Under the pieces are notes generated by a model. The model had not been told where the DNA came from. It saw nothing but the letters and a program-made list of their open reading frames with translations, and did not search any database. A DNA stretch of 64,000 nt from Minisyncoccota bacterium (GTDB taxonomy: Bacteria; Patescibacteriota; Minisyncoccia; UBA6257; 2-01-FULL-56-20), in NCBI GenBank assembly GCA_035541435.1, contig DATKNL010000012.1, forward strand, positions 6,498-70,497. The letters are read 5' to 3'. Positions 28,679-42,686 of this stretch are shown one piece after another (position 1 is the first letter of the stretch; each line of letters begins with the position of its first letter). The translations under genes were made by a program, and so were the position numbers.

Positions 28679-29431
28679 TTATCGCAACGCGTAGGTGATC
28701 GTCACGTCGTCAGTCACGTCCTGCGAACCAGGCTGGATCGTCGGCACGGACGATTCCGCCACCGCGCCGCCAAATCCCGAAGCGGCATAGTATGGTCGCG
28801 GTGGCGGCGTTCCGCCGCTCTCGACGACATTCACCGGATCGCCGAGCGTCACGCCGGCCTCGCTCGCCATCTCCATCGCCTTGGCTTTCGCCTTCGCGAA
28901 CGCGTCGGCGCGCGCGGGCGCGAGCATCGCGTTCGGATCGTTGAACGTGAAGTTGACGCCGCCGATCTGGTTCACGCCGAGCGGCGCGAGGCCGCCGAGG
29001 ATCGGGGCGACCTTCGTGAGGTCGTGCACCTTGATCGTCACCGTCTGCGTGAGCGTGTAGCCCGTGATGGACTGCCGCCCGGTGTTCGTGTCGTATTTGT
29101 AGTTCGGCTGCAGGTCATAGGCCGTCGTGGCCGTGTCGCTTGCGGCGATCCCCTGCGACGAGACGAACTTGAGCACCGCGTTCATCTTGTCGATGTTGTT
29201 CGCGCTGAGCGCCTGCGGATCGTTCCCCTGCGTGAGGACCGAGAACGAGATCTCCGCGAGGTCGGGCGTCGCCGTCGTCTTTCCCTCGGCGGTCACCGTG
29301 ATCGTCCGCGAGGGCGGATAGGACGCCTTGAAGGATCCGATTGCGGGCAAAGCGAAGAACACCAGTCCGACGATCACGACCACCATGAGCACGTTGAGGA
29401 GGGCCCAGAAATAGAATTTTTGTCGTTCCAT
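28679..29431 (-). CDS. SIMPL-domain (DUF541) periplasmic protein
   Basis: N-terminal TM followed by the SIMPL fold motifs (TITVTAEG...AEISFSV). Confidence 0.8.
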   Translation of the reverse strand: MERQKFYFWALLNVLMVVVIVGLVFFALPAIGSFKASYPPSRTITVTAEGKTTATPDLAEISFSVLTQGNDPQALSANNIDKMNAVLKFVSSQGIAASDTATTAYDLQPNYKYDTNTGRQSITGYTLTQTVTIKVHDLTKVAPILGGLAPLGVNQIGGVNFTFNDPNAMLAPARADAFAKAKAKAMEMASEAGVTLGDPVNVVESGGTPPPRPYYAASGFGGAVAESSVPTIQPGSQDVTDDVTITYALR

Positions 29432-29446
29432 AGGTTTTTGAGGTAA

Positions 29447-30217
29447 TTAGTTATTCGATACTTTCTTCAGCATCTTCCTGAACTCTGCGGCCTTTAGACT
29501 CGCACCACCCACCAGAGCTCCGTCGATCTCCCTTAATTTTACATAATCGGCGATGTTTTTGCCGTTCACCGATCCCCCATAGAGCACGTTCGGCTTCGGA
29601 ACGCCATGAGCCTTTAACAATTTCTTAATCATGAGCGCCATCTCCGCGGCGTCGCTCGGCGTGTCGGAGCGTCCGGTCCCGATCGCCCAGATCGGCTCAT
29701 AGGCGACGATCACGGCATTGCCGCGCAGGAGGTCCTTCGGGACGTTTTGTAAATCTTTCTTTAACTGATTTTTAATATATCGCTCGGCGGCCATCGTCCC
29801 CTTGCGCCGCACGGCGAGCGGCTCGCCCACGCAGAGGATCACCTCGACGCCGTCCCGCAGCGCGAGCCTGATCTTCTTGTTGATCATCGCGTCGGTCTCG
29901 TGCATCCATCCGCGCCGTTCGGAATGGCCAACGATCACGTGATGCACGCCGAGGGATTCGAGCATGCGGGGCCCGATCTCGCTCGTATAGGGACCGCGTT
30001 CCTCCCAGAAGACATCCTGCGCGCCGACCGAAAGGCCACGTTTCGACTTGAGGCGCTTATAGATTTTCGCGATGCCCTCGAGATAGATGAACGGCGGGCA
30101 GATCTCGACCGCGACGCCGTTTTCGCGCCTCATCGAGGCGACTTCCTTGAAGAGCTTGAGGGCATGGGCTTCGGTCTTGGGGTTTTCCTTCCAGTTCGCC
30201 GCGAGGAATTTGCGCAT
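29447..30217 (-). CDS. tpiA: Triosephosphate isomerase
   Basis: ANWKEN, VGAQDV, IVGHSERR, YEPIWAIGTG. Confidence 0.9.
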   Translation of the reverse strand: MRKFLAANWKENPKTEAHALKLFKEVASMRRENGVAVEICPPFIYLEGIAKIYKRLKSKRGLSVGAQDVFWEERGPYTSEIGPRMLESLGVHHVIVGHSERRGWMHETDAMINKKIRLALRDGVEVILCVGEPLAVRRKGTMAAERYIKNQLKKDLQNVPKDLLRGNAVIVAYEPIWAIGTGRSDTPSDAAEMALMIKKLLKAHGVPKPNVLYGGSVNGKNIADYVKLREIDGALVGGASLKAAEFRKMLKKVSNN

Positions 30218-30303
30218 ATGGGAATTCTACCATGGAGCTGCCGGGCAAAAGAAAAGCCGCTCATAGCGGGCTCGTCCGCTGCTCAGCCTCTTGGCTCACT
30301 CAA

Positions 30304-30777
30304 TCAACGCATCCACGTGCGCCAAATGGGAGCAACGATGGATCCCAAGGCGAAGAGCGAAACCCCGATGACGAGGAGCAGTAGCGCCGCATAAAGCGTC
30401 TTTTTATAATACTTAAAATTTCTTAACGCTTTTATAATTGATTTCACCAATAAAAACTTTGGCTTATCTGGCTGCGGAGGTATTTCCCGCTCCGATAATC
30501 CAATGCTCGAAACCACTGCGGGAGATATTGCGTCCTCTCCTTTTTCATTGCGTGTATTTGACTCGATCCGCGTTAGAAGTTTGGCTATTTGATCTAATCG
30601 TTCGTTGGTCACCTCAAGAGATTCGACAATTTCTGTTATCTTCCAATACCAGGTAATAAATTCCCTGCAAATGAGAAAAACGATTATTGCTATCACAATA
30701 AAAACAAGCAAGGAAGACAACCCGACAGAAGACAATCCCAATATGTTTATCACGGGGTCGGGAACCTGGGGATCCAT
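30304..30777 (-). CDS. Island cassette gene 1: hypothetical 2-TM membrane protein (157 aa)
   Basis: Low-GC ORF preceded by motif box R1 plus a promoter and followed by a terminator at ~30236-30262. Confidence 0.5.
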   Translation of the reverse strand: MDPQVPDPVINILGLSSVGLSSLLVFIVIAIIVFLICREFITWYWKITEIVESLEVTNERLDQIAKLLTRIESNTRNEKGEDAISPAVVSSIGLSEREIPPQPDKPKFLLVKSIIKALRNFKYYKKTLYAALLLLVIGVSLFALGSIVAPIWRTWMR

Positions 30778-30819
30778 AAGATAACTATATCAAAGGCAGG
30801 GTCGGCTTCCTGATCAACC

Positions 30820-30844
30820 GTACTGCGCTGGACGAGCTCAGAGC
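30820..30844 (-). repeat. Cassette box R1 (divergent copy of the att-like motif)
   Basis: gtactgcgctggacgagctcagagc, compared with the consensus agtacgcggcgttggacgagtttagaac. Confidence 0.5.
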
Positions 30845-30856
30845 TCCGTTAGCGCC

Positions 30857-30893
30857 AAAATAAAACATGGCTGCTCCTTTCGGAACAGCCATC
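30857..30893 (-). terminator. Terminator of cassette gene 2
   Basis: ATGGCTG...CAGCCAT stem plus GTTTTATTTTGG on the minus strand. Confidence 0.55.
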
Positions 30894-30980
30894 GATCTGA
30901 AAACTATCTCGGGATCCCGTAGCCCACAAAAGGCAGCGGCCACGAACGGCCTCTTCGCGTCCTCTCCTCCCGTTGATCGG

Positions 30981-31211
30981 TTAGCTTATGACGACGAACT
31001 CGGATGGGTCATAGGAACCTTCCGTGCCATCGTCATGCAGGATGTCATAGCAAAGTCCGTGACAATCATGATGTCTCAGCACCTTCCCGGACATATCCGG
31101 CTTCTTGCTCGCCCATCCTTTCTCGGTCCATTCGTCTCGCATTGCGAGGTTCGGTTGGGTGGTTCTCACTCGCGTGCCCGGATCGATCGGCGGCCATTTT
31201 TCCCGAGTCAT
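30981..31211 (-). CDS. Island cassette gene 2: hypothetical soluble protein (76 aa from ATG 31211; track shows TTG-extended form)
   Basis: GAGGAGGAG SD 7 nt upstream of ATG MTREKWPPID. Confidence 0.5.
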   Translation of the reverse strand: MTREKWPPIDPGTRVRTTQPNLAMRDEWTEKGWASKKPDMSGKVLRHHDCHGLCYDILHDDGTEGSYDPSEFVVIS

Positions 31212-31249
31212 ATTCAACTCCTCCTCTCGTTTCATTGACAACTGACTAT

Positions 31250-31306
31250 GTTATAAATTAATGCATAATTTCTGTCAATTCACGCGGCGCTGGACGAGTT
31301 TAGAAC
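31250..31306 (-). promoter_or_regulatory. Cassette 2 promoter: box R2 (31281-31306) + TTGACA (31278-31273) -17- TATAAC (31255-31250)
   Basis: The minus-strand read is GTTCTAAACTCGTCCAGCGCCGCGTGAATTGACAGAAATTATGCATTAATTTATAAC. Confidence 0.55.
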
Positions 31307-31330
31307 CGATATATTGGCGATGGACGGCGG

Positions 31331-31362
31331 AACAAGAAAGCCGCTCTCGCTGAGAGCGGCTT
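31331..31362 (-). terminator. Terminator of cassette gene 3
   Basis: AGCCGCTCTC-GCTG-AGAGCGGCT, a 10-bp perfect stem. Confidence 0.6.
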
Positions 31363-31377
31363 GGTCCTGACTGATGG

Positions 31378-31893
31378 CTATCGGCTGAGGCCGGCCTGCT
31401 GAGTGACTTCGACGATGGCACCCCTGCCCGATTTTACGAAACGCACATCGCCAGGATCGTCATCGAAAAGGTTCCCGCACGACGCACACCCGGTTCCGAC
31501 GGCCCTCGATGGCATTCTGAGGAACTCCTCCGAAACCGGAACCAGGATGCATCGGGCAAACCCATTCCCGGTCTCTTCGCCATCATACGTGCCAACCCAC
31601 GTCCCATCCGCCTGCTTCGTGAACGCATAGCGAACAACGTCGGGTCGACCATCGTACTTCTTGTTGAATGTCAAAGCGGTTTCGGTCAGGTGGACATCAT
31701 CGACGATCGATTCGCCTAAAGGATCAACGAGCCGCCCGACGAGGATGCCTTCCCCGCAATTGTCGGGGCCTATGACGCCCGAGAACAAGGACCGCACCAA
31801 ACCGTGCAAAAACACTGCGTGAAGGTCCCCGCCGAGAGCGCTGAGACCAAGACTCGGCCGTTCCTGAAAGAAGAATCCCTGGATCAGATACAT
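31378..31893 (-). CDS. Island cassette gene 3: hypothetical protein (172 aa from ATG 31893)
   Basis: AGGAGG 6 nt upstream of ATG MYLIQGFFF. The track ORF extends to 32049, but that part overlaps the promoter and box. Confidence 0.5.
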   Translation of the reverse strand: MYLIQGFFFQERPSLGLSALGGDLHAVFLHGLVRSLFSGVIGPDNCGEGILVGRLVDPLGESIVDDVHLTETALTFNKKYDGRPDVVRYAFTKQADGTWVGTYDGEETGNGFARCILVPVSEEFLRMPSRAVGTGCASCGNLFDDDPGDVRFVKSGRGAIVEVTQQAGLSR

Positions 31894-31921
31894 CTGTCGC
31901 CTCCTACGGTACGCTGCCTGG

Positions 31922-32014
31922 ATCATAGCTGCCGAGCGATTGTCTGTCAAAGCTGCTCGAGCTCGACGAGATGCGATCAGCGAAATAGCGCGCGGCGCTG
32001 GACGAGCTTGGAAC
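31922..32014 (-). promoter_or_regulatory. Cassette 3 promoter: box R3 (31988-32014), TTGACA (31950-31945) -17- TATGAT (31927-31922)
   Basis: Read directly from the sequence: consensus hexamers with 17-bp spacing. Confidence 0.55.
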
Positions 32015-32015
32015 T

Positions 32016-32052
32016 TTGGGAGCGGTGGAAAAATGGAGAAGGCGACCATTTC
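32016..32052 (-). terminator. Terminator of cassette gene 4
   Basis: AAGGCGA-N10-TCGCCTT followed by CTCCATTTTTCC on the minus strand. Confidence 0.5.
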
Positions 32053-32083
32053 TGATCGCCTTACATGTTGCGCTCACCGGTCG

Positions 32084-32779
32084 TCAGAATCCCGCGGGGT
32101 TCTTTACGAGCGCGATGATGTCTTTCAGCGCGTAGTAGTTGGGATTGATGAAATAGCCAGCCGCATCGGTAAGCCCGCGATAAAGATTCATCATTCCGAA
32201 CACGACTGCGACCAGGGGGACGACGACAGTGAAGAATCCTCGCCATCCCTTGTGGGTAGGCAATGGGGGCAAATCAGGGTCAATACTTTTGAAGTTCGGC
32301 TTCTTGGGATCGTTGTCGTCGGGCGACGGCTGCCACCATTTGAGCAACAAGCGACGATAGAGCCATACAAGGAATAGGAACCCGATCGGATTGATGAGTC
32401 CTGTCACGCCTTTCACATATTGCTGCATGACGAGGACTCGCCAAAGCTGAGGAGCTACCTGTTCGATTTTCCCGGCCAAGTAGATCACGGTTTCTTTCGC
32501 CATGTCGAGGCCTTTGTCGAGGGCGTCACCGACCGTCTTGTGTTCGCCGGGTTTCGTGTCTTGAGCCTGGTCGTTTGCGGCTTTCTGAAGAACCTCGAGC
32601 GCTTGTTGGAGCTCTTTCCTTTGCTGTGGATCCTTCAGCCGATCCATGATGCTCGGTCCAGAAGCTTGTTGGGCAGGCGGTGCTGGTGCCTGCGAAGAGT
32701 TCTGCGCAAACGCAGAAACAAAAAGCGTCATCAGCGCCACCAATACCAAAACCTGCGTCGGCTTGCGTGTCATAACCAC
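32084..32779 (-). CDS. Island cassette gene 4: secreted/membrane protein (signal peptide + C-terminal TM, 231 aa)
   Basis: MVMTRKPTQVLVLVALMTLFVSAFAQ signal, Gln/Ala-rich helical region, and two C-terminal hydrophobic segments. Confidence 0.5.
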   Translation of the reverse strand: MVMTRKPTQVLVLVALMTLFVSAFAQNSSQAPAPPAQQASGPSIMDRLKDPQQRKELQQALEVLQKAANDQAQDTKPGEHKTVGDALDKGLDMAKETVIYLAGKIEQVAPQLWRVLVMQQYVKGVTGLINPIGFLFLVWLYRRLLLKWWQPSPDDNDPKKPNFKSIDPDLPPLPTHKGWRGFFTVVVPLVAVVFGMMNLYRGLTDAAGYFINPNYYALKDIIALVKNPAGF

Positions 32780-32809
32780 CTCGTCTTTCGATTTCGAACA
32801 ACTGGCAAT

Positions 32810-32865
32810 GTTATAACATTGCCATTGTAAAATGTCTAGTACGCGGCGTTGGACGAGTTTAGAAC
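32810..32865 (-). promoter_or_regulatory. Cassette 4 promoter: box R4 (32838-32865), TAGACA -17- TATAAC (32815-32810)
   Basis: The minus-strand read is GTTCTAAACTCGTCCAACGCCGCGTACTAGACATTTTACAATGGCAATGTTATAAC. Confidence 0.5.
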
Positions 32866-32873
32866 ATTATTAG

Positions 32874-32901
32874 CGAAAAAAAGTGACCCTTTTGGGATCA
32901 C
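32874..32901 (-). terminator. Terminator of cassette gene 5
   Basis: GTGATCCC-AAAA-GGGTCAC followed by TTTTTTT on the minus strand. Confidence 0.6.
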
Positions 32902-32926
32902 GTTATAGGCACCGACTAAGTTTTTA

Positions 32927-33190
32927 CTAAAGCTCTAAAGAATCGGGAATGTCCTTAAGTATCTCATTGAGAGCTTCGATTTTTTTACGCAACATTGGCT
33001 CAACTTTTTCAATTGTTCTTGGATTTGCATCCGGCCCAAAATTGGTTTCGAGAGCTAGAACAAGAGATTGAGCTTCCCCGACGTCTGCTCCTAATCGAGC
33101 GATAAGCCTGAGATTGTCACGCAATGCGTACAACTTCTCGGGGGTTATTTCTGATTCAACCTGCGGAGATTTGTTTTCGATGCTTTCCAT
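32927..33190 (-). CDS. Island cassette gene 5: small acidic helical protein (87 aa)
   Basis: ORF between a terminator and promoter R5. Confidence 0.45.
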   Translation of the reverse strand: MESIENKSPQVESEITPEKLYALRDNLRLIARLGADVGEAQSLVLALETNFGPDANPRTIEKVEPMLRKKIEALNEILKDIPDSLEL

Positions 33191-33267
33191 GCAAGTCCTT
33201 TTTGTTATGCTCTAAGTGAATCATGCGACCAGACACAATGTCAATCGGCTTTCGATCGGCTGAATAT

Positions 33268-33329
33268 GTTATTACATAATATATTATGTATGTCAACTTT
33301 CAGTACGCGGCGTTGGACGAATTTAGAAC
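33268..33329 (-). promoter_or_regulatory. Cassette 5 promoter: box R5 (33303-33329), TTGACA (33296-33291) -17- AATAAC (33273-33268)
   Basis: It shares TTGACATACATAA with the cassette 6 promoter region. Confidence 0.5.
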
Positions 33330-33331
33330 TG

Positions 33332-33375
33332 CATTGTCGTTAGAAAAATAGAAGAGGCGAATCCTCGTGAGAGAA
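33332..33375 (-). terminator. Terminator of cassette gene 6
   Basis: GAGGCG...CGCCTC hairpin followed by TATTTTTCT on the minus strand. Confidence 0.45.
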
Positions 33376-33409
33376 TCCGCCTCTTGTTGGCTAGTGGGCC
33401 CGGATGAAC

Positions 33410-33730
33410 TTAGGCGTCTGAGGTCGCCTTGCCAGACCTTATGGTTCTCGCCTGTTGAAGGAGAATGAGATGATCTTCGTTCACCTGACCGAGATGGTTG
33501 GCGAGAGCCACGATACCGTTTTCGGCATGTTCTCCCGACAAAGCGATGCCGCCCAGAGTCAGGATTATTAGTTCCAGGACGGGTTCGAACTTGGCCCGAA
33601 AACCCATCTGGACCAAGGGATCCATGGTGGCGATCGCCGTTCTGATTCTCGCGGGAGGCTCCCAAGATATTTTCCCCGCCGATCCCGCGTCAACGATTAT
33701 CGCTCGAGCAGAAGTTGCGTCTTTTTTCAT
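33410..33730 (-). CDS. Island cassette gene 6: hypothetical protein (106 aa)
   Basis: ORF whose upstream region carries TTGACAT fused to the tRNA-Glu 3'-end duplicate. Confidence 0.45.
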   Translation of the reverse strand: MKKDATSARAIIVDAGSAGKISWEPPARIRTAIATMDPLVQMGFRAKFEPVLELIILTLGGIALSGEHAENGIVALANHLGQVNEDHLILLQQARTIRSGKATSDA

Positions 33731-33806
33731 TTACCTTCCTCCGGGCTGAAATCTATTAGTCAAAAACGATCTGAAAGGATATTGTCATATCTATTTATGT
33801 ATGTCA

Positions 33807-33826
33807 AGTACCGCTAACCGGATTTT
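33807..33826 (-). repeat. Direct repeat R6: 20-bp duplicate of the tRNA-Glu 3' end (att-like)
   Basis: agtaccgctaaccggatttt here, versus agtaccgctaaccggatttg at 33993-34012 (19/20 identical). Confidence 0.7.
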
Positions 33827-33929
33827 CACTGCTCGGCAGCTTCGCTGCCTGCGCTTTGAGAACCCTCGGTTCTCAAGACTCTCCGACACGGGAGGGGCAG
33901 ACTGCCCCTCCCGACCCCTCCCCTCGTTC

Positions 33930-33952
33930 AAATCCGGGTCGGTGATAGCGGT
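33930..33952 (+). repeat. Inverted partial copy of tRNA-Glu 3' end
   Basis: aaatccgggtcggtgatagcggt, versus the reverse complement of the repeat aaaatccggttagcggtact. Confidence 0.45.
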
Positions 33953-33994
33953 TGCAAAAGGGATCCATCACAAGATGGATCCCTTTTGCAATAG

Positions 33995-34069
33995 TACCGC
34001 TAACCGGATTTGAACCGGTGTTTTCGCCGTGAGAGGGCGACGTCCTAGACCGGGCTAGACGATAGCGGC
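33995..34069 (-). tRNA. tRNA-Glu (anticodon CUC)
   Basis: Manual fold: acceptor GCCGCTA/TAGCGGT, D stem GTCT/GGAC, anticodon stem TCGCC/GGCGA with loop CTCTCAC, T arm ACCGG-TTCAAAT-CCGGT. It is close to E. coli tRNA-Glu. CCA is not encoded. Confidence 0.8.
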
Positions 34070-34087
34070 TCCGATCGCACCCGAAGA

Positions 34088-35437
34088 TTATAAGCCGATG
34101 TTTCGGTTCGGCGCAACCGACGAAGACGGCGGCCGGCTCGCGACGGCCGGGCCGTGCGCGCGGATCTCGCGGACCACGTCGTGAAGCCCGATCGCGTGCG
34201 ATCCTTTAACGAGCACGACGTCCCCTTTCTTCAGCAGGTCGCGCACGGGCTTCGCCGCCTGCTCGGCGGTGTCGAAGCTCATCACGCGCTCGCGGCGCAT
34301 GCGCGCGGCGACGGCGGCCTCGGCGAGAAACTTCGCGCGCGTGCCGACGGTCACGAGGATGTCGGCCTTCTCGGCGGCGAGGCGTCCCATGCGCTCGTGG
34401 GTCTCCATCGTGTACTTGCCGATCTCGAGCATGTCGCCGAGGACCGCGACGCGGCGCTTCGCCGGCAGGTCGCCCAGCGCCTCGAGCGCCGACTGCATCG
34501 CGATCGGGCTCGCGTTATAGGAATCGTCGATGATCCACGACTGCTTGTCGCCCGCGAGGACCTGCATGCGGGACGCGGGCGGGCGGTATCGCGTGAGCGC
34601 CTCGGAGATCGCGACGAGGTTCATGCCGAACACCACGCCGACCGCCGCGGCCGCCGCCGCGGAATAGGCGTGCGCGCGTCCGAAGACGCCCGGGATGCGC
34701 ACCGGCACGACGCCGCCCCCATATTCGAGCTTGAACGAGATGCCGACCGGCTGGCCTTCGGCGTCGATCTTGTTCTCGAAGCGCGACGCGCGCATCTCGG
34801 TACCCCGCGAGAATCCGAAGGTCATGACGTGCGCCCGCGTGCGGGACTGCAGCGCGCGCACGAGCTCGTCATCGCCGTTCAGGACCGCGTAGCCTTCGGA
34901 CGTAAGGTATTCGATGAGCCGCCCCTTCTCGCGCGCGACCTCGGGCGGGCCCGGATAGAACTCGACGTGTACGGGCACGTCGCCCACCGCCGTGATCACG
35001 CTCACGTTCGGGCGCGCGATCTGCAGCAGGTACTTGATGTCGCCGGGGCGGTCCGCGCCGTATTCGAGCACGAGGATCTCGGGATAGCCGCCGGACTTCA
35101 CGAGGATGCGCCACGCGGAACCGACGATGACCCTGATCCAGAACGCCGCCTTCGCGAGGCGCGCGGTGCCGGGCGGCTGCGCGCGGCTGATCAGCCTGAG
35201 CTGCTTCGGGCTCCAGTCGCCGAGGATCGCGAGCGGCAGGCCGAGGTCATTGTTGAGGTTGCCCTCCGAAACGCGCACGCGCCGTCCACCTTCGAGGACG
35301 GCCTTGATCGCGTATTTCGTCGAGGTCTTGCCGGCGCTCCCGGTCACGCCGACGATCCCCGGACGGTAACGCCACAGGGTGAGGCGCGCGAGCCGCCGCA
35401 GCACGAACCGCAGGGACCGGATGAGGGCGCGCTTCAT
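34088..35437 (-). CDS. murF: UDP-N-acetylmuramoyl-tripeptide--D-alanyl-D-alanine ligase
   Basis: GVTGSAGKTSTKYAIKAVL P-loop; Mur ligase middle and C-terminal domains. Confidence 0.85.
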   Translation of the reverse strand: MKRALIRSLRFVLRRLARLTLWRYRPGIVGVTGSAGKTSTKYAIKAVLEGGRRVRVSEGNLNNDLGLPLAILGDWSPKQLRLISRAQPPGTARLAKAAFWIRVIVGSAWRILVKSGGYPEILVLEYGADRPGDIKYLLQIARPNVSVITAVGDVPVHVEFYPGPPEVAREKGRLIEYLTSEGYAVLNGDDELVRALQSRTRAHVMTFGFSRGTEMRASRFENKIDAEGQPVGISFKLEYGGGVVPVRIPGVFGRAHAYSAAAAAAVGVVFGMNLVAISEALTRYRPPASRMQVLAGDKQSWIIDDSYNASPIAMQSALEALGDLPAKRRVAVLGDMLEIGKYTMETHERMGRLAAEKADILVTVGTRAKFLAEAAVAARMRRERVMSFDTAEQAAKPVRDLLKKGDVVLVKGSHAIGLHDVVREIRAHGPAVASRPPSSSVAPNRNIGL

Positions 35438-38906: not shown

Positions 38907-39668
38907 ATGCTAGCATTGATGCATCCCCGCATGAGCAGAAAGCTGATCAAATTCTTTCTCATCCTCCTCGCGATCCAGACGCTGATCGCCCTCGTTCTTT
39001 TCCTCTTCTTAACCCCGTACGGCACAGCCGCGCACGGCATCATCGGCATGGGCCTCGGCCTCATCCTGTTCTGGAACGTCATCGGCGGCTACATCCAGTG
39101 GAAGATCCGCGACCGCGTGAAGGCCGCGTGGCAGGCGGTGCGCCTCGACTGGCGGCTCAAGTTCGGCATCCTCGCCACCATCATGGCACTCCTCGAGGAA
39201 ATGGTGACCGTCACGATGACGAACCTCTCCTTCCTCTTCGGCACGACGCCCGCCGTCGCGCATATCACCGTCTCGACGAACTATCTCGACGTCGTCCTCA
39301 CGAACAGCGTGGTCCTCTTCGTGCCGATGTTCTTCATCTGGGCGCTCATCCTCTCGCGCTATGACTTCAGCCCGAACGCCGTCCTGCTCCTCTGGGGCAC
39401 GACGGGAACCCTCATGGAGGCGGGCTATGGCGGCGCGAACCAGGTCATCGGCATCGGAATGTGGATGTTCGTCTATGGCCTCATGATCTACCTTCCCGCC
39501 TATTCGATGCCGTCCGCCGCCGAACGCGGCGCGCTCAGGCAGCCGCGCTGGTGGCATTACGTGCTGTCCGTCTTCGTTCCGCCCATCGTCGGCATCGTGC
39601 CGGGCGGCCTCCTCGGAACGTTTTTCAAATTCATCAGGCCGCCGCATTACCTGCCGGGGGTGAAATAA
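38907..39668 (+). CDS. Polytopic membrane protein of unknown function
   Basis: About 7 TM helices. The start is uncertain (ATG at 38907/38919/38931); the track ORF begins at a TTG at 38805. Confidence 0.5.
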   Translation: MLALMHPRMSRKLIKFFLILLAIQTLIALVLFLFLTPYGTAAHGIIGMGLGLILFWNVIGGYIQWKIRDRVKAAWQAVRLDWRLKFGILATIMALLEEMVTVTMTNLSFLFGTTPAVAHITVSTNYLDVVLTNSVVLFVPMFFIWALILSRYDFSPNAVLLLWGTTGTLMEAGYGGANQVIGIGMWMFVYGLMIYLPAYSMPSAAERGALRQPRWWHYVLSVFVPPIVGIVPGGLLGTFFKFIRPPHYLPGVK

Positions 39669-39815
39669 CGTGGAGGCTTGAACTTCTCGAGTTCGAAGTC
39701 CGCGCTCAACGATTCAAAAAACAATCGTGCTTTTATATTGCGAGGTCCGAGTTTGGATGTGTATAAACTCCTTTTTTTCGACAACGAGTCCGCCATCCTG
39801 TTCCGATATTATCGG

Positions 39816-42569
39816 TTAATTTATATAAGCCTCGTAGAGCACAAACAAAAACTCCAATCGTTCCGCCTCGGAAGCAAACCCCCGCGGCGCGCCATATGCG
39901 GCATCGACCGCTTTGTCGAGACGTTCATGGGCTTCGAGAAGCTGGGACGGCATGACATTGGGATCATAAAGATCAGCCAGCGTTCCCCTGCATTCCTTCC
40001 GCACGTCAAGAAGATTATTTGACGCATCTTCTATGGCATGACGATGTTCCGTGCTAATGCTTTGAGGCCACGGGTAATTATTATAGACCAGTTCATTTGA
40101 ATAACGATATCGAGATTCTAGCCGACCACACACCGCCCTCATCCATGTCATATGCATGAGAGATTGCAAAACTCCGAAGTGATACGGCGTAACATTTGGA
40201 ACGACAATACACGTATCCCCCACGATATATTCTGGCCCAAATAACGAAAGTGGAACGTATTTCCTTCGCTCCGAGCTCACCCTCGGAATGAGAACATATT
40301 CCGTGTCCGGCTGACGGTCTTCTCCGAAAAGGTATGGTTTTCTCGCAAGCCGGCGGGTCGCCTCGCGCTTAGACTGGTCACGATACGTCCGCACCGATTC
40401 GACGCGTTGCATGACGTGCGGCATGGCACGCAACTCCTGCGGGGTGGCGTTTTTTAACCAAAGACAATACCGCGTAGATCCGTTAAGGTATTCCTTGGCG
40501 GACAGCAGTGGTCGAATGAACCTTTCAGCGGCTGGCTCTTCGATTAAAAGACTTTCCTTCTCGGCGTTGTCGTCAAAGAGCAAAAATCCACCATCGTTCG
40601 GCATGCTACCGAATCGCGCTTCGGGGACTTCAGCGATCGGCTTCCTGCGCGGCAATACGACGAGATTGTCGGCATCGACTAAATATGGGTTAATATTCTG
40701 TGCCTGAACAAGATGAGGACTGCCACCGGGATCATCGTAGTCCCATAGTTTCGGCTTCTCCGACCGTTCAAGAGAGAAGCCGATAATGACACAGTGAACA
40801 CCGGCCCGTCCCGGAGCTTCATTCGACCAGCGAAAGGTGCGATGTGCGAAGTTGATGTTGATGCCCTTCCCCAACAACAGCGGCCACAAAATGGCAGCTT
40901 GCTCCCCTTGCGTAATGGAGTTTGTGGAGACAAAAGCAGAACTGATCTTTGTTCCTTGAATGAAGTCGGCCGCTTTGGCATACCACGCCGTTACATAATC
41001 CAGTTCCCCCGCACCGCGGAGATCGCCGAAGATGTTTTGCATTTCGGTTTTCTGCTCGGGGCTTTGATCTTGCTTCGCGATGAACGGAGGGTTCCCAAGG
41101 ATATAGGTGAACGAAGCGCCTTCCGGTGCGAGACGGCTCCAGTCCGTATTCAAGGCATCGCCATGAAAAATGAACGGCTGTTCCTTCAGCGGGAGTTTAG
41201 CAAAATATTCCCCGAACAGATTTCCGAGAATGACGTTCATCTGATGATCGATGAGCCAGAGCGATAGACGAGCGATCTCCGCAGGAAAGGCGAGAATCTC
41301 TATTCCGGAAAGATGTTCAAGTGTCAATTTGGAGATGCTCGAAACATCGATCTTCAAGTTAAGGGGCGTCTGTCCCGATTTGAGTTCTTCTCTATAGAGC
41401 CTTTTAATGATCTCCAATTCAATGAGGCGCAATTCGCGGTACGCAACGACGAGAAAGTTTCCGCATCCGCAGGCAGGATCGAGAAGACGCATTGAGACGA
41501 TCCTGTTCCACAACGCGTTGAGCTTCGATTGATTCTCCCCCGCTTTCTCCAACTCATCTCTTACGTCATCCAAAAACAGTCCATCGATAACTTTCAAAAT
41601 GTTTTTCTCCGACGTATAGTGCGCTCCAAAATCGTGTCTGATATCCTCGTCCTCCACGTCCATGACGAATTGAAACATTGAACCGAAAATCGCGGGCGAG
41701 ACCGAACCCCAGTCGAAACGCGCGGCATTGAGGATTTCCTGCCGCATTTCCTTATTGAAGAACGGAAGCGAGAGCGGGTCTTTGAAGAGCGTCCCATTCA
41801 CATAGGGAAAATCCTTCAGGTCGTCAGACAACGCCTGTTGCCGACGATCCTCCGGCGTGTTCAATACCTGGAAAATAGCCTGCAGATGCCCTCCCAAATC
41901 CTCGCCGTTCTCCTTAGTAAGATAAGCGACGTAATCATGAAAGATGTCGCGTTTCGGGAAAATGCCCGCATCGTCGGCGAAGTAAAGAAAGACGAGGCGA
42001 ACCATGAGTCGCGCGAGCTGTTCTTTTGGATAGTTCCCTTGATAAAGAGCTCGGTAGAGCTGGACCACCACGCGCACCGCTTTTTTGTTGACGGGGTTTT
42101 CCTCCTCGTAATGACGCACTTCATATCCGGCGATGAAGCCGAAGAGGCGGATGTGCGCCGGAAGCTCGGTGAGGCGGAACGTGTGTTCTTCCGCTTTCCC
42201 GTTCTTCCCTTCGAGGTCGTATAATCGCAGATGCTCGAAGTCGGTAACAACAATAAAGCGAGGGCGATTTTCCTCGGCAAGGCTCAAAAAATAATCATTT
42301 GCCTGTAATGTGGCGCTATCGAGACTCTCCCCGCGGGATTTGTGTTCCACCAGAAGCACGCCCGGCCAAAAGAGGTCTATGAAGCCAGTGTTGCCGTTGA
42401 TCTTTTGAATCGCCCGTTGGAATCCTGCGACGGAACGCCGCCTGACTCCGAAGATATCAAAAAAGTCGGTCCAAAAATCTGCATAATCTTGGATCTCGCC
42501 GGTAGATTCCTTGTACTCCTTCGCAAAAGCAGTTGCCCGAGATCGAATCTCGTTCCAACTCAAGGTCAT
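39816..42569 (-). CDS. Type IIL (MmeI-like) restriction-modification enzyme: endonuclease + gamma-class N6-adenine methyltransferase + TRD in one chain
   Basis: 917 aa from MTLSWNEIRSRATAFAKEYK (MmeI-type N-terminus), LDPACGCGNFLV (SAM motif I), GNPPF (motif IV). The track's N-terminal extension is a read-through of tRNA-Val. GC is ~50% against ~65% background. Confidence 0.8.
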   Translation of the reverse strand: MTLSWNEIRSRATAFAKEYKESTGEIQDYADFWTDFFDIFGVRRRSVAGFQRAIQKINGNTGFIDLFWPGVLLVEHKSRGESLDSATLQANDYFLSLAEENRPRFIVVTDFEHLRLYDLEGKNGKAEEHTFRLTELPAHIRLFGFIAGYEVRHYEEENPVNKKAVRVVVQLYRALYQGNYPKEQLARLMVRLVFLYFADDAGIFPKRDIFHDYVAYLTKENGEDLGGHLQAIFQVLNTPEDRRQQALSDDLKDFPYVNGTLFKDPLSLPFFNKEMRQEILNAARFDWGSVSPAIFGSMFQFVMDVEDEDIRHDFGAHYTSEKNILKVIDGLFLDDVRDELEKAGENQSKLNALWNRIVSMRLLDPACGCGNFLVVAYRELRLIELEIIKRLYREELKSGQTPLNLKIDVSSISKLTLEHLSGIEILAFPAEIARLSLWLIDHQMNVILGNLFGEYFAKLPLKEQPFIFHGDALNTDWSRLAPEGASFTYILGNPPFIAKQDQSPEQKTEMQNIFGDLRGAGELDYVTAWYAKAADFIQGTKISSAFVSTNSITQGEQAAILWPLLLGKGININFAHRTFRWSNEAPGRAGVHCVIIGFSLERSEKPKLWDYDDPGGSPHLVQAQNINPYLVDADNLVVLPRRKPIAEVPEARFGSMPNDGGFLLFDDNAEKESLLIEEPAAERFIRPLLSAKEYLNGSTRYCLWLKNATPQELRAMPHVMQRVESVRTYRDQSKREATRRLARKPYLFGEDRQPDTEYVLIPRVSSERRKYVPLSLFGPEYIVGDTCIVVPNVTPYHFGVLQSLMHMTWMRAVCGRLESRYRYSNELVYNNYPWPQSISTEHRHAIEDASNNLLDVRKECRGTLADLYDPNVMPSQLLEAHERLDKAVDAAYGAPRGFASEAERLEFLFVLYEAYIN

Positions 42570-42613
42570 ATCGTCAATGCTACCTCCGGACTGTGGAAAT
42601 TGCCATCTACGTG

Positions 42614-42686
42614 TGGGCGTTGCAGGGATCGGACCTGCGACCTCTCCGATGTGAACGGAGCGCTCTAACCACTGAGCTAAACGCCC
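42614..42686 (-). tRNA. tRNA-Val (anticodon CAC)
   Basis: GGGCGTT-TA-GCTCAGTGGTTAGAGC-G-CTCCG-TTCACAT-CGGAG-AGGTC-GCAGGTCCGATCCCTGC-AACGCCC-A. Confidence 0.8.

Follow-up and report, generated by a model that had tools for sequence, protein, structure and literature searches.

A tRNA-Glu-adjacent islet of small single-gene units with reiterated box-promoter junctions in a Candidatus Paceibacterota genome

Described cassette systems and the tRNA-Glu islet

In the hyperplastic regions of T4-type phage genomes, ORFans are flanked by PeSL (promoter early stem-loop) cassettes, composites of a sigma70 promoter and a stem-loop that mediate shuffling and form mini-circles (Arbiol et al. 2010, PMC2839356; Comeau et al. 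2014, PMC4122927). A 64,000-nucleotide stretch of DNA (the window) from one strain of an uncultured Candidatus Paceibacterota (Candidate Phyla Radiation (CPR)/Patescibacteria), on which all evidence given here is based, holds six small genes between a tRNA-Glu(CTC) gene and tpiA that invite comparison with this system. Our preferred, though tentative, reading is that they form a horizontally acquired islet of moron-like genes, which are linked through reiterated terminator/box/promoter modules comparable to PeSL cassettes. The likeness lies in a hypervariable segment where a repeated terminator and a strong sigma70-like promoter separate small ORFans or accessory genes, in the presence of one transcription unit per open reading frame (ORF), with the repeats oriented with transcription, and in the proposed double role of the repeats, which in both cases would insulate and drive the genes and act as recombination points. 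A promoter/terminator composite between ORFans was indeed found in the islet, and the variability of the region is apparent from the comparison with the loci L128, L132 and L138/L139 of related genomes. In contrast to the PeSLs, the islet is located on a CPR chromosome beside a tRNA gene and not in a T4-type phage genome; what it conserves is an additional 28-bp box, rich in GC and placed 5' of the -35 element, whereas PeSLs conserve an AT-rich upstream region and the stem-loop; its terminators are non-homologous; and its copies number only five, known from the sequence of one strain.

Several other described systems share single traits with the islet. Genomic islands at tRNA genes and cis-mobilizable elements (CIMEs; PMC5704250) have in common with it the insertion exactly at the tRNA 3' end, an exact tRNA repeat (19 bp in this case), a deviant GC content, an empty site in relatives, another island at the same tRNA and, as far as the scanned or annotated ORFs of the window show, the lack of an integrase. 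The tRNA repeat of the islet, however, bounds 167 bp only, a distal attR is missing at the tpiA end, the internal boxes are not tRNA att sequence, and the units measure 0.46-0.85 kb from box to box with a single gene each. Such a unit size is far below that of typical islands or integrative and mobilizable elements. Like an integron, the islet is a one-orientation array of single genes with a short repeated site and a cargo of mixed composition; it differs from integrons in the lack of intI and attI (no recombinase match in the islet or in the scanned or annotated ORFs of the window), in boxes that have neither an attC hairpin nor RYYYAAC/GTTRRRY cores, in the promoter and terminator of each unit (the cassettes of integrons generally lack a promoter and rely on Pc for expression), and in the near identity of its boxes, as opposed to attC sites, which vary in sequence.

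The dif modules are bounded by pdif sites, which consist of a XerC arm, a 6-bp spacer and a XerD arm with an ATAA-N6-TTAT inner motif and alternate in orientation; the modules are located on plasmids and moved by a recombinase supplied in trans (PMC13141974). The islet resembles them in its small accessory modules without a recombinase of their own and in the 28-bp length of the sites, but its boxes lack the dif motif and are all direct, and the islet is chromosomal and tRNA-adjacent. Phage morons (PMC3594210) are single genes of deviant GC content with their own promoter and terminator, as was also found for the islet units, one of which (g4) matches a PHROG family labelled 'moron/membrane protein'. 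Unlike morons, the islet genes lie outside a recognisable prophage, six in tandem, and are joined by a shared box. The kinds of element underlying the islet are already known; new is a tRNA-adjacent islet with PeSL-like junction modules, and a variable gene patch built in this way would be unusual, not unprecedented.

Insertion and anatomy of the islet

The gene order at the locus is mraZ-rsmH-ftsL-ftsI-murF, tRNA-Glu, islet, tpiA-SIMPL-murB-hpf-secA, and murF, tpiA, secA and ribosomal genes in the window provide the chromosomal setting. Syntenic loci of relatives, in other Paceibacterota-like genomes, were found via MurF homologues at 72-77% identity (77% for the closest relative). In L132 and L138 (MurF identity 72-75%), no more than 34-57 bp separate the tRNA-Glu gene from tpiA, and the genes behind it are those of the window as well (tpiA-SIMPL-MurB-HPF-SecA); in L139 the site is nearly empty, with just 274 extra, hairpin-rich bp (L139:11409-11682); in L128 this tRNA is the site of another island, larger than 10 kb (L128:11400-21275), with genes for HigB, an M78 peptidase, a Beta_protein, a P4 cII-like protein and a Mutator transposase; the L130 locus is rearranged. 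Since the block is absent from the syntenic relatives, the islet is an insertion; an earlier note on this DNA, made from its letters alone, had proposed insertion at the tRNA-Glu site, and the comparison of the tpiA/tRNA-Glu interval across the relatives agrees with it. As homology to the relatives restarts at the conserved -10 region of tpiA (TGGTAGAAT; alignment of the tpiA-upstream regions), the islet spans approximately 30245-33993 of the window, exactly between the tRNA-Glu(CTC) gene and the promoter of tpiA (29447..30234, the right-hand chromosomal flank), and this block of 3.75 kb is probably horizontally acquired. The gene strand is the - strand for all islet coordinates, as it is for both flanking genes.

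The base composition accords with the low GC content that the earlier note had reported, and the ORFs are heterogeneous: GC is 51.1% in the islet and 43-58% in its ORFs, while the flanking 1-kb bins mostly show 59-69%. The GC content at third codon positions (GC3) is 0.475 for g1, 0.62 for g2, 0.67 for g3, 0.64 for g4, 0.40 for g5 and 0.59 for g6 (murF, 0.91; tpiA, 0.77). Because these values differ sharply between neighbouring ORFs, more than one donor can be argued for, and the composition as a whole argues for a foreign islet of mixed origin. The MurF homologue search returned an identical protein labelled Candidatus Paceibacterota. Three independent contigs (the 83-kb metagenomic contig ENA ERZ27256510 k141_2357112, which contains the window, one from Logan and one from JGI) are 100% identical over the stretches covered, and an exact look-up of MurF and TpiA for strain variants yielded the source contig and one identical short contig, nothing else.

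The six genes (76-231 aa) are arranged on the same strand as monocistronic units of promoter, Shine-Dalgarno sequence, ORF and intrinsic terminator; the independence of the units is read from promoter-like sites and terminator-like hairpins in the sequence. Closest to the tRNA, unit 6 (u6; 33352..33807) has its promoter at 33807..33779 (TTGACA-17-CAATAT, with TG in the extended -10 position), followed by the Shine-Dalgarno sequence GGAGGAAGG, g6 (33730..33410, 106 aa) and the terminator (33385..33352). Unit 5 (32883..33296) consists of a promoter at 33296..33268 (TTGACA-17-AATAAC), g5 (33190..32927, 87 aa) and a terminator at 32901..32883, and unit 4 (32039..32838) of a promoter at 32838..32810 (TAGACA-17-TATAAC), g4 (start at 32773 or 32779, end at 32084; 229 or 231 aa) and a terminator at 32062..32039. 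In unit 3 (31338..31950), the promoter at 31950..31922 (TTGACA-17-TATGAT) precedes the Shine-Dalgarno sequence AGGAGG, g3 (31893..31378, 171 aa) and the terminator at 31362..31338; in unit 2 (30867..31278), the promoter at 31278..31250 (TTGACA-17-TATAAC) precedes the Shine-Dalgarno sequence GAGGAGGAG, g2 (31211..30981, 76 aa) and the terminator at 30892..30867. Unit 1 (30257..30817), next to tpiA, has a weak promoter at 30817..30789 (TTGATC-17-TTTGAT), g1 (30777..30304, 157 aa), which had been missed by the original gene caller, and a terminator at 30269..30257; its mRNA would be nearly leaderless.

Every ORF is followed by a terminator-like hairpin and a T-run (6/6), and strong Shine-Dalgarno sequences were seen in the alignment of the upstream regions, including those of units 2 and 3 to which attention had been drawn before. 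A strict consensus scan flagged just the u3 promoter, plus a different match with 16-bp spacing at u5; pattern or consensus scans also recovered two of the six promoter-like sites. The -10 elements of u5, u4 and u2 read (A/T)ATAAC and lack the usual final T, which u6, u3 and u1 keep, and the units with an intact adjacent box (u5, u4 and u2) are exactly those with the -10 that misses the final T. The description of six units with their own 17-bp-spaced promoters, as given in the earlier note, stands with regard to six promoters and six terminators, but it has to be tempered for the -10 elements of u5, u4 and u2 and for the weak u1 promoter. As a side observation, the -10 of the g4 promoter lies at the centre of a perfect 22-bp palindrome (TGGCAATGTTATAACATTGCCA, 32803-32824; I10), and weaker dyads extend over the -10 of u5 and u6; all of these are possible operators.

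The box had been described as a conserved element of ~26 bp in front of five promoters; five copies were confirmed, with a length of 28 nt and one degenerate copy (repeat family D1, - strand). They comprise b5 (GTTCTAAATTCGTCCAACGCCGCGTACT, 33302..33329), the reference copy b4 (GTTCTAAACTCGTCCAACGCCGCGTACT, 32838..32865), b3 (GTTCCAAGCTCGTCCAGCGCCGCGCGCT, 31987..32014), b2 (GTTCTAAACTCGTCCAGCGCCGCGTGAA, 31279..31306) and the degenerate b1 (GAGCTCTGAGCTCGTCCAGCGCAGTACG, ~30817..30846), which has a 2-nt deletion and 62% identity over 45 nt. All five are in direct orientation, and no inverted repeats involve the boxes. Mutual identity among b2-b5 is 22-27/28; relative to the copy nearest to the tRNA, it amounts to 27/28 for b4, 22/28 for b3 and 23/28 for b2 and is followed by the degenerate b1, so that the divergence with distance from the tRNA, another earlier claim, holds roughly. 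The longest identical run between b4 and b5 is 19 nt. In an anchored comparison, the 14 nt 5' of the boxes matched at 4-6/14 positions, about as unrelated sequence does. A 24-nt box pattern gave four matches with at most one mismatch in the window (0 expected by chance); the box is confined to the islet and absent from the other 60 kb of the window, and its copies are spaced by 460-850 bp with genes between them. The distance from box to -35 element is -1, 0, +1, +5 and +36 nt (the last at b3); the box is located immediately 5' of the -35 in four of the five cases. The hexamer TCCAAC is present in b4 (32850-32855) and b5 (33314-33319); TCCRAC is the canonical MmeI recognition sequence, and the co-occurrence with a gene for an MmeI-family enzyme 6 kb away is probably coincidence.

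On the 3' side of the box, homology runs on in patches through the promoter. The u5 and u6 promoters share TTGACATACATAA (19/29 overall), those of u5 and u2 match at 21/29 positions, u4 and u2 share TATAACAT.G.CAGTTGT, and u4, u2 and u5 share TATAACAT.G.CAG (family D2). The homologous promoter of u5, u4 and u2 is composed of the -35, 17 nt, (A/T)ATAAC and AT..(C/T)CAG; at u3, where the box is 36 nt off, the promoter with its TATGAT is unrelated. At the junctions, the upstream terminator is followed by 12-20 unrelated nt, then by the 28-bp box, which is asymmetric and has sharp bounds, and finally by the promoter. Since u5, u4 and u2 have the box fused to promoters that are homologous, the repeated entity is a module of ~75 bp, made up of box and promoter after the preceding terminator (three intact, the others partial), and not a bare att site; this fusion points to a reiterated regulatory module rather than to a recombination scar.

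Other identities of the box were considered and rejected. The earlier proposal that the boxes are related to the tRNA-Glu 3' end failed in local alignment (z < 1.4 against shuffles), with only GCG(G)TACT in common. The T-loop-like start of the box (GTTCNAANC) is reminiscent of the 3' end of another tRNA, but no match exceeded 7 nt in the 44 tRNA genes of the fetched loci, and an Rfam scan of 29000-35000 revealed no family above threshold except tRNA. With regard to attC-like folding, four of the gene-strand junctions have an unpaired box in the centroid single-stranded DNA fold, and in none of the five does the box pair with sequence 5' of the terminator; moreover, its start GTTCTAA is incompatible with the GTTRRRY core. 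A dif-like site is contradicted by the lack of an ATAA-N6-TTAT motif on reading and by the direct orientation of all copies (a dif dyad score is uninformative here, given that real dif sites score no better than shuffles). A promoter for an extracytoplasmic function sigma factor inside the box would have too short a spacing (AAC-N13-CGTA), and a DNA uptake sequence, a repetitive extragenic palindromic element or a CRISPR (clustered regularly interspaced short palindromic repeats) array does not agree with the confinement to the islet and the gene-containing spacing.

The attB-like anchor of the islet is the tRNA-Glu(CTC) gene of 76 nt at 33994..34069 (ARAGORN; Rfam tRNA model, 60.4 bits). An exact direct repeat of its 3' end (AAATCCGGTTAGCGGTACT, 33807..33825; family D7) covers the T-loop to 2 nt past the discriminator and is located 186 bp downstream; the chance expectation for such a repeat is 0 matches, and the alignment z is 9.5 versus shuffles. 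The att-type repeat of the earlier note is therefore real, its extent being corrected from 19/20 at 33807-33826 to 19/19 at 33825..33807. The final T of the duplicate is the first base of the u6 -35. The repeat encloses just the proximal 167 bp and not the islet, and no tRNA repeat occurs at the tpiA end. The enclosed spacer (33826..33992, - strand) is hairpin-rich according to inverted repeat I2, alignment and RNA fold: it contains four hairpins, including a perfect one with an 18-bp stem (33952-33991), and an imperfect inverted copy of the T-loop-to-acceptor part of the tRNA (33926-33951). The fold of the 270-nt region 33800-34069 has a z of -8.5 versus shuffles. In view of the 19-bp direct repeat and the inverted partial copy, the tRNA-Glu gene would have served at least once as the attB of an integrase. 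We interpret the spacer as what is left of an integrated element after loss of its genes but not of its att sites, similar to a CIME, a decayed integrated element retaining attL and attR (PMC5704250).

On its gene strand, the islet has only three copies of the pentamer GTACT, and all of them directly precede a -35 (tRNA-duplicate/u6, box/u5 and box/u4); the background frequency in the window is 2.3e-4 per position. The tRNA-duplicate/u6 junction GCGGTACT|TGACA resembles the box/u4 junction GCGTACT|AGACA and that of box/u5. Of the claim that the tRNA duplicate shares the architecture of the boxes, this common GCG(G)TACT at the junction is what stood; there is no significant similarity beyond it.

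Some further observations concern the tRNA-Glu slot. Two very different tRNA-Glu(CTC) types, distinguished by acceptor stems and T-arms, occupy the same position after murF: one of 73 nt (L128:11324-11396, L132:11345-11417, L139:11336-11408) and one of 76 nt (window 33994-34069, L130:11336-11411, L138:11344-11419), the type of the window thus lying directly 3' of murF in L130 and L138 as well; their distribution shows no obvious agreement with MurF similarity. In the window, the 3' part of the tRNA-Glu gene with its 3' flank has an imperfect inverted copy at 33926-33969 (whole region 33926-34016), which results in palindrome arms of ~46 nt around the 18-bp hairpin. The L128 and L139 loci both have a T-loop fragment in inverted orientation, at a distance of 50-120 nt on the 3' side of the tRNA.

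Proposed origin and function of the junction modules

Beyond the observed insertion, anatomy, repeat statistics and tRNA repeat, we infer a regulatory role of the box and a recombinational growth of the array. Box and promoter would constitute one cis-regulatory cassette, in which the box is most likely bound by a protein and would assist a promoter whose -10 is weak and defective; terminator and cassette together would insulate and drive each ORF. Repeated in one orientation, the module could supply short homology for gain, loss, duplication and conversion of units, with exchange by Campbell-type insertion of a one-module circle, by unequal crossing-over or by gene conversion. Arrival at the site would be a separate matter, in which an integrase event at tRNA-Glu might have left the gene-less, CIME-like remnant of 167 bp.

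The distribution of the box fits such local reiteration better than import with each gene. Outside the window it was encountered only in two 100%-identical contigs from other samples: the loci of the relatives did not contain it, IMG/VR gave only matches that resemble chance coding sequence (as also for the tRNA 3' end), and the JGI metagenomes returned just one 1-kb contig, 100% identical to the window. Because of its absence from these three sources apart from the same-strain contigs, the box appears to be endemic. In the GTDB genome collection, a too degenerate box 20-mer produced at least 119 single chance matches, apparently coding (A-L-D-E-L/F-G-A), and says little on absence.

Several points weigh against this PeSL-like interpretation. 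The terminators are not homologous to each other, which leaves the resemblance to PeSLs an architectural one. No direct trace of exchange was found, the three contigs being identical and no relative exceeding 77% MurF identity. The box is better conserved and more sharply bounded than the adjacent promoter, which is not predicted by homology-driven spread; conservation of this sort is typical of a protein recognition site, e.g. an att site. The variable distance between box and -35 would be awkward for an activator site of fixed geometry, the model does not predict the GTACT at the tRNA-duplicate and box junctions, and no regulator was identified. Finally, identical runs in the boxes are short, and the 19 nt that b4 and b5 share are marginal for homologous recombination by RecA.

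An integrase acting in trans could account for part of these points, and we regard it as a possible, if unlikely, explanation. In such an array, small circles with an asymmetric site across the box/-35 junction would have been inserted serially at the tRNA-Glu 3' terminus (GCGGTAC|T) by a recombinase encoded elsewhere, with the newest unit nearest to the tRNA and older units keeping the box at their 3' end. The single orientation of the boxes, their sharp bounds and far better preservation than the flanks would follow, and the five boxes fit the five units g6-g2 if the box is the unit 3' end. The tRNA-duplicate/u6 junction is built like box/u4 and box/u5, with GTACT nowhere else on the islet gene strand; the most distal box is the most decayed, ORF compositions differ, the tRNA apparently acted as attB, and L128 has another island there. 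Mobilisation in cis or in trans has been described for elements without an integrase, e.g. the CIMEs (PMC5704250). Set against this, no integrase, transposase or recombinase was detected among the six islet ORFs (Pfam, NCBIfam, PHROG) or among the other ORFs of the window that were scanned or annotated, and neither a hairpin nor an attC-like fold was found, as the earlier note had it for the segment itself. The box resembles the tRNA 3' end over 5-7 nt only and matches no fetched tRNA; it turned up in none of the other genomes, viruses or metagenome contigs searched, and the homologues of g3 and g4 lack it. Homologous promoters before unrelated ORFs are unexplained by independent import, g1 has no 3' box, and GC3 reveals no age gradient along the array. 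In consequence, of the footprint of repeated site-specific insertion at a tRNA attB that had been proposed, the insertion and the 19-bp att repeat remain, while the boxes are not tRNA-like and a recombinase is missing from the window. More specifically, the box/-35 junction might be the recombination site of an undescribed CPR cassette system in which self-expressing single-gene mini-circles, each with promoter, ORF, terminator and an asymmetric 28-bp site, are inserted singly at the tRNA-Glu 3' terminus by a recombinase encoded elsewhere. Such a system would amount to an integron whose cassettes bear promoters and which lacks an integrase gene; we consider it rather improbable.

It is likewise doubtful that the box is purely an operator or activator site of a transcription factor and the islet a single-block, gene-poor remnant of the accessory region of a prophage, plasmid or integrative and conjugative element, without any cassette dynamics. 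The position directly 5' of the -35 in four of five cases in one orientation to transcription would suit this explanation, as would the correspondence between an intact adjacent box and a -10 without final T, which suggests factor dependence, the palindrome over the u4 -10, the PHROG matches of g1 and g4, and the tRNA direct repeat typical of integrated elements. The stoperators of cluster A mycobacteriophages, asymmetric repressor sites in one orientation across the phage genome, offer a comparison (PMC9283540). However, no regulator gene was recognised (the model of g6 is of low confidence, and g2, g5 and g6 have no family match), the spacing is variable up to +36 nt, and u6 has no box. The islet matched neither DNA nor proteins of phages or plasmids, the window contains no phage structural, replication or integration genes, and GC3 values of 0.40 versus 0.64 in adjacent ORFs speak against a single donor.

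Vertically inherited intergenic repeats, or diverged tandem duplication of one gene, without special function would agree with repeats that are local, found only here and most alike between neighbours (b5/b4, 27/28), but this is very improbable given six unrelated ORFs of different composition, a block absent from three syntenic relatives and a box far better conserved than its flanks, the empty sites and unrelated ORFs largely excluding vertical inheritance.

CPR/Patescibacteria have tiny genomes, and their gain of accessory genes is poorly understood. The locus would represent a compact architecture that wires foreign single genes for expression via a reiterated box-promoter module. If the module is recombinogenic or mobile, the 'mobile regulatory cassette' idea of the PeSLs would apply to bacterial chromosomes as well as to T4-type phages; in the case of site specificity, a new cassette system would be at hand; should the box be no more than an operator common to the units, the locus would be a small genomic islet of the ordinary kind.

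Cargo proteins and a second tRNA-adjacent insertion

None of the six ORFs had a match in Pfam, NCBIfam, PADLOC or the PDB sequences, in line with the earlier statement that no families are recognisable, which needs amendment for three of them: g4 matches phrog_1486 at 1e-10 and g1 matches phrog_28494 at 1e-6, and g3 is a member of a large, uncharacterised family with 447 clusters at 50% identity and proteins of mostly ~110-180 aa. No family matches were obtained for g2, g5 and g6, and the sole match of g6 among 5.8 billion sequences is g6 itself. The family alignment of g4 comprises nine sequences with 46-67% identity and 58 invariant columns; as read from the sequences, a hydrophobic N-terminus and hydrophobic C-terminal stretches suggest a transmembrane protein with a signal peptide, and two hydrophobic stretches suggest that g1, too, is a membrane protein.

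Structure prediction, which the earlier note had recommended for the proteins, was confident for g3 and of low confidence for g6. The AlphaFold2 (AF2) model of g3 is an 8-stranded beta protein (predicted local distance difference test (pLDDT), 86), for which a fold search gave weak matches to beta-barrel folds and no informative structural neighbour; the single-sequence AF2 model of g6 is all-helical (pLDDT 56). The conservation of g4 in nine sequences and the 447 clusters of g3 together with its pLDDT indicate that the ORFs are real, and the cargo is probably accessory, with two transmembrane-like proteins (g1, g4), a small beta-barrel (g3) and three proteins without family (g2, g5, g6). In other CPR genomes, the homologues of g3 and g4 stand singly in unrelated contexts and lack the box; those inspected have promoter-like sites upstream, and the g3 homologue is followed by a terminator hairpin. 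In L141, from another CPR-like genome, the g3 homologue stands alone, its neighbours being encoded on the other strand.

Another insertion with a low GC content, ~3.7 kb in length (window 38907-42612), is located directly 3' of a tRNA-Val(CAC) gene (42613-42686), ahead of mraZ. It contains a gene of an MmeI-family restriction-modification enzyme (39816..42569, - strand) and an ORF of 253 aa without Pfam match (38907..39668, + strand); neither a tRNA-Val 3' repeat of at least 11 nt nor an integrase was found in it. In L128, L132, L138 and L139, the tRNA-Val is followed by ~200 bp and then by mraZ. One and the same genome thus carries two integrase-less insertions of ~3.7 kb directly 3' of tRNA genes.

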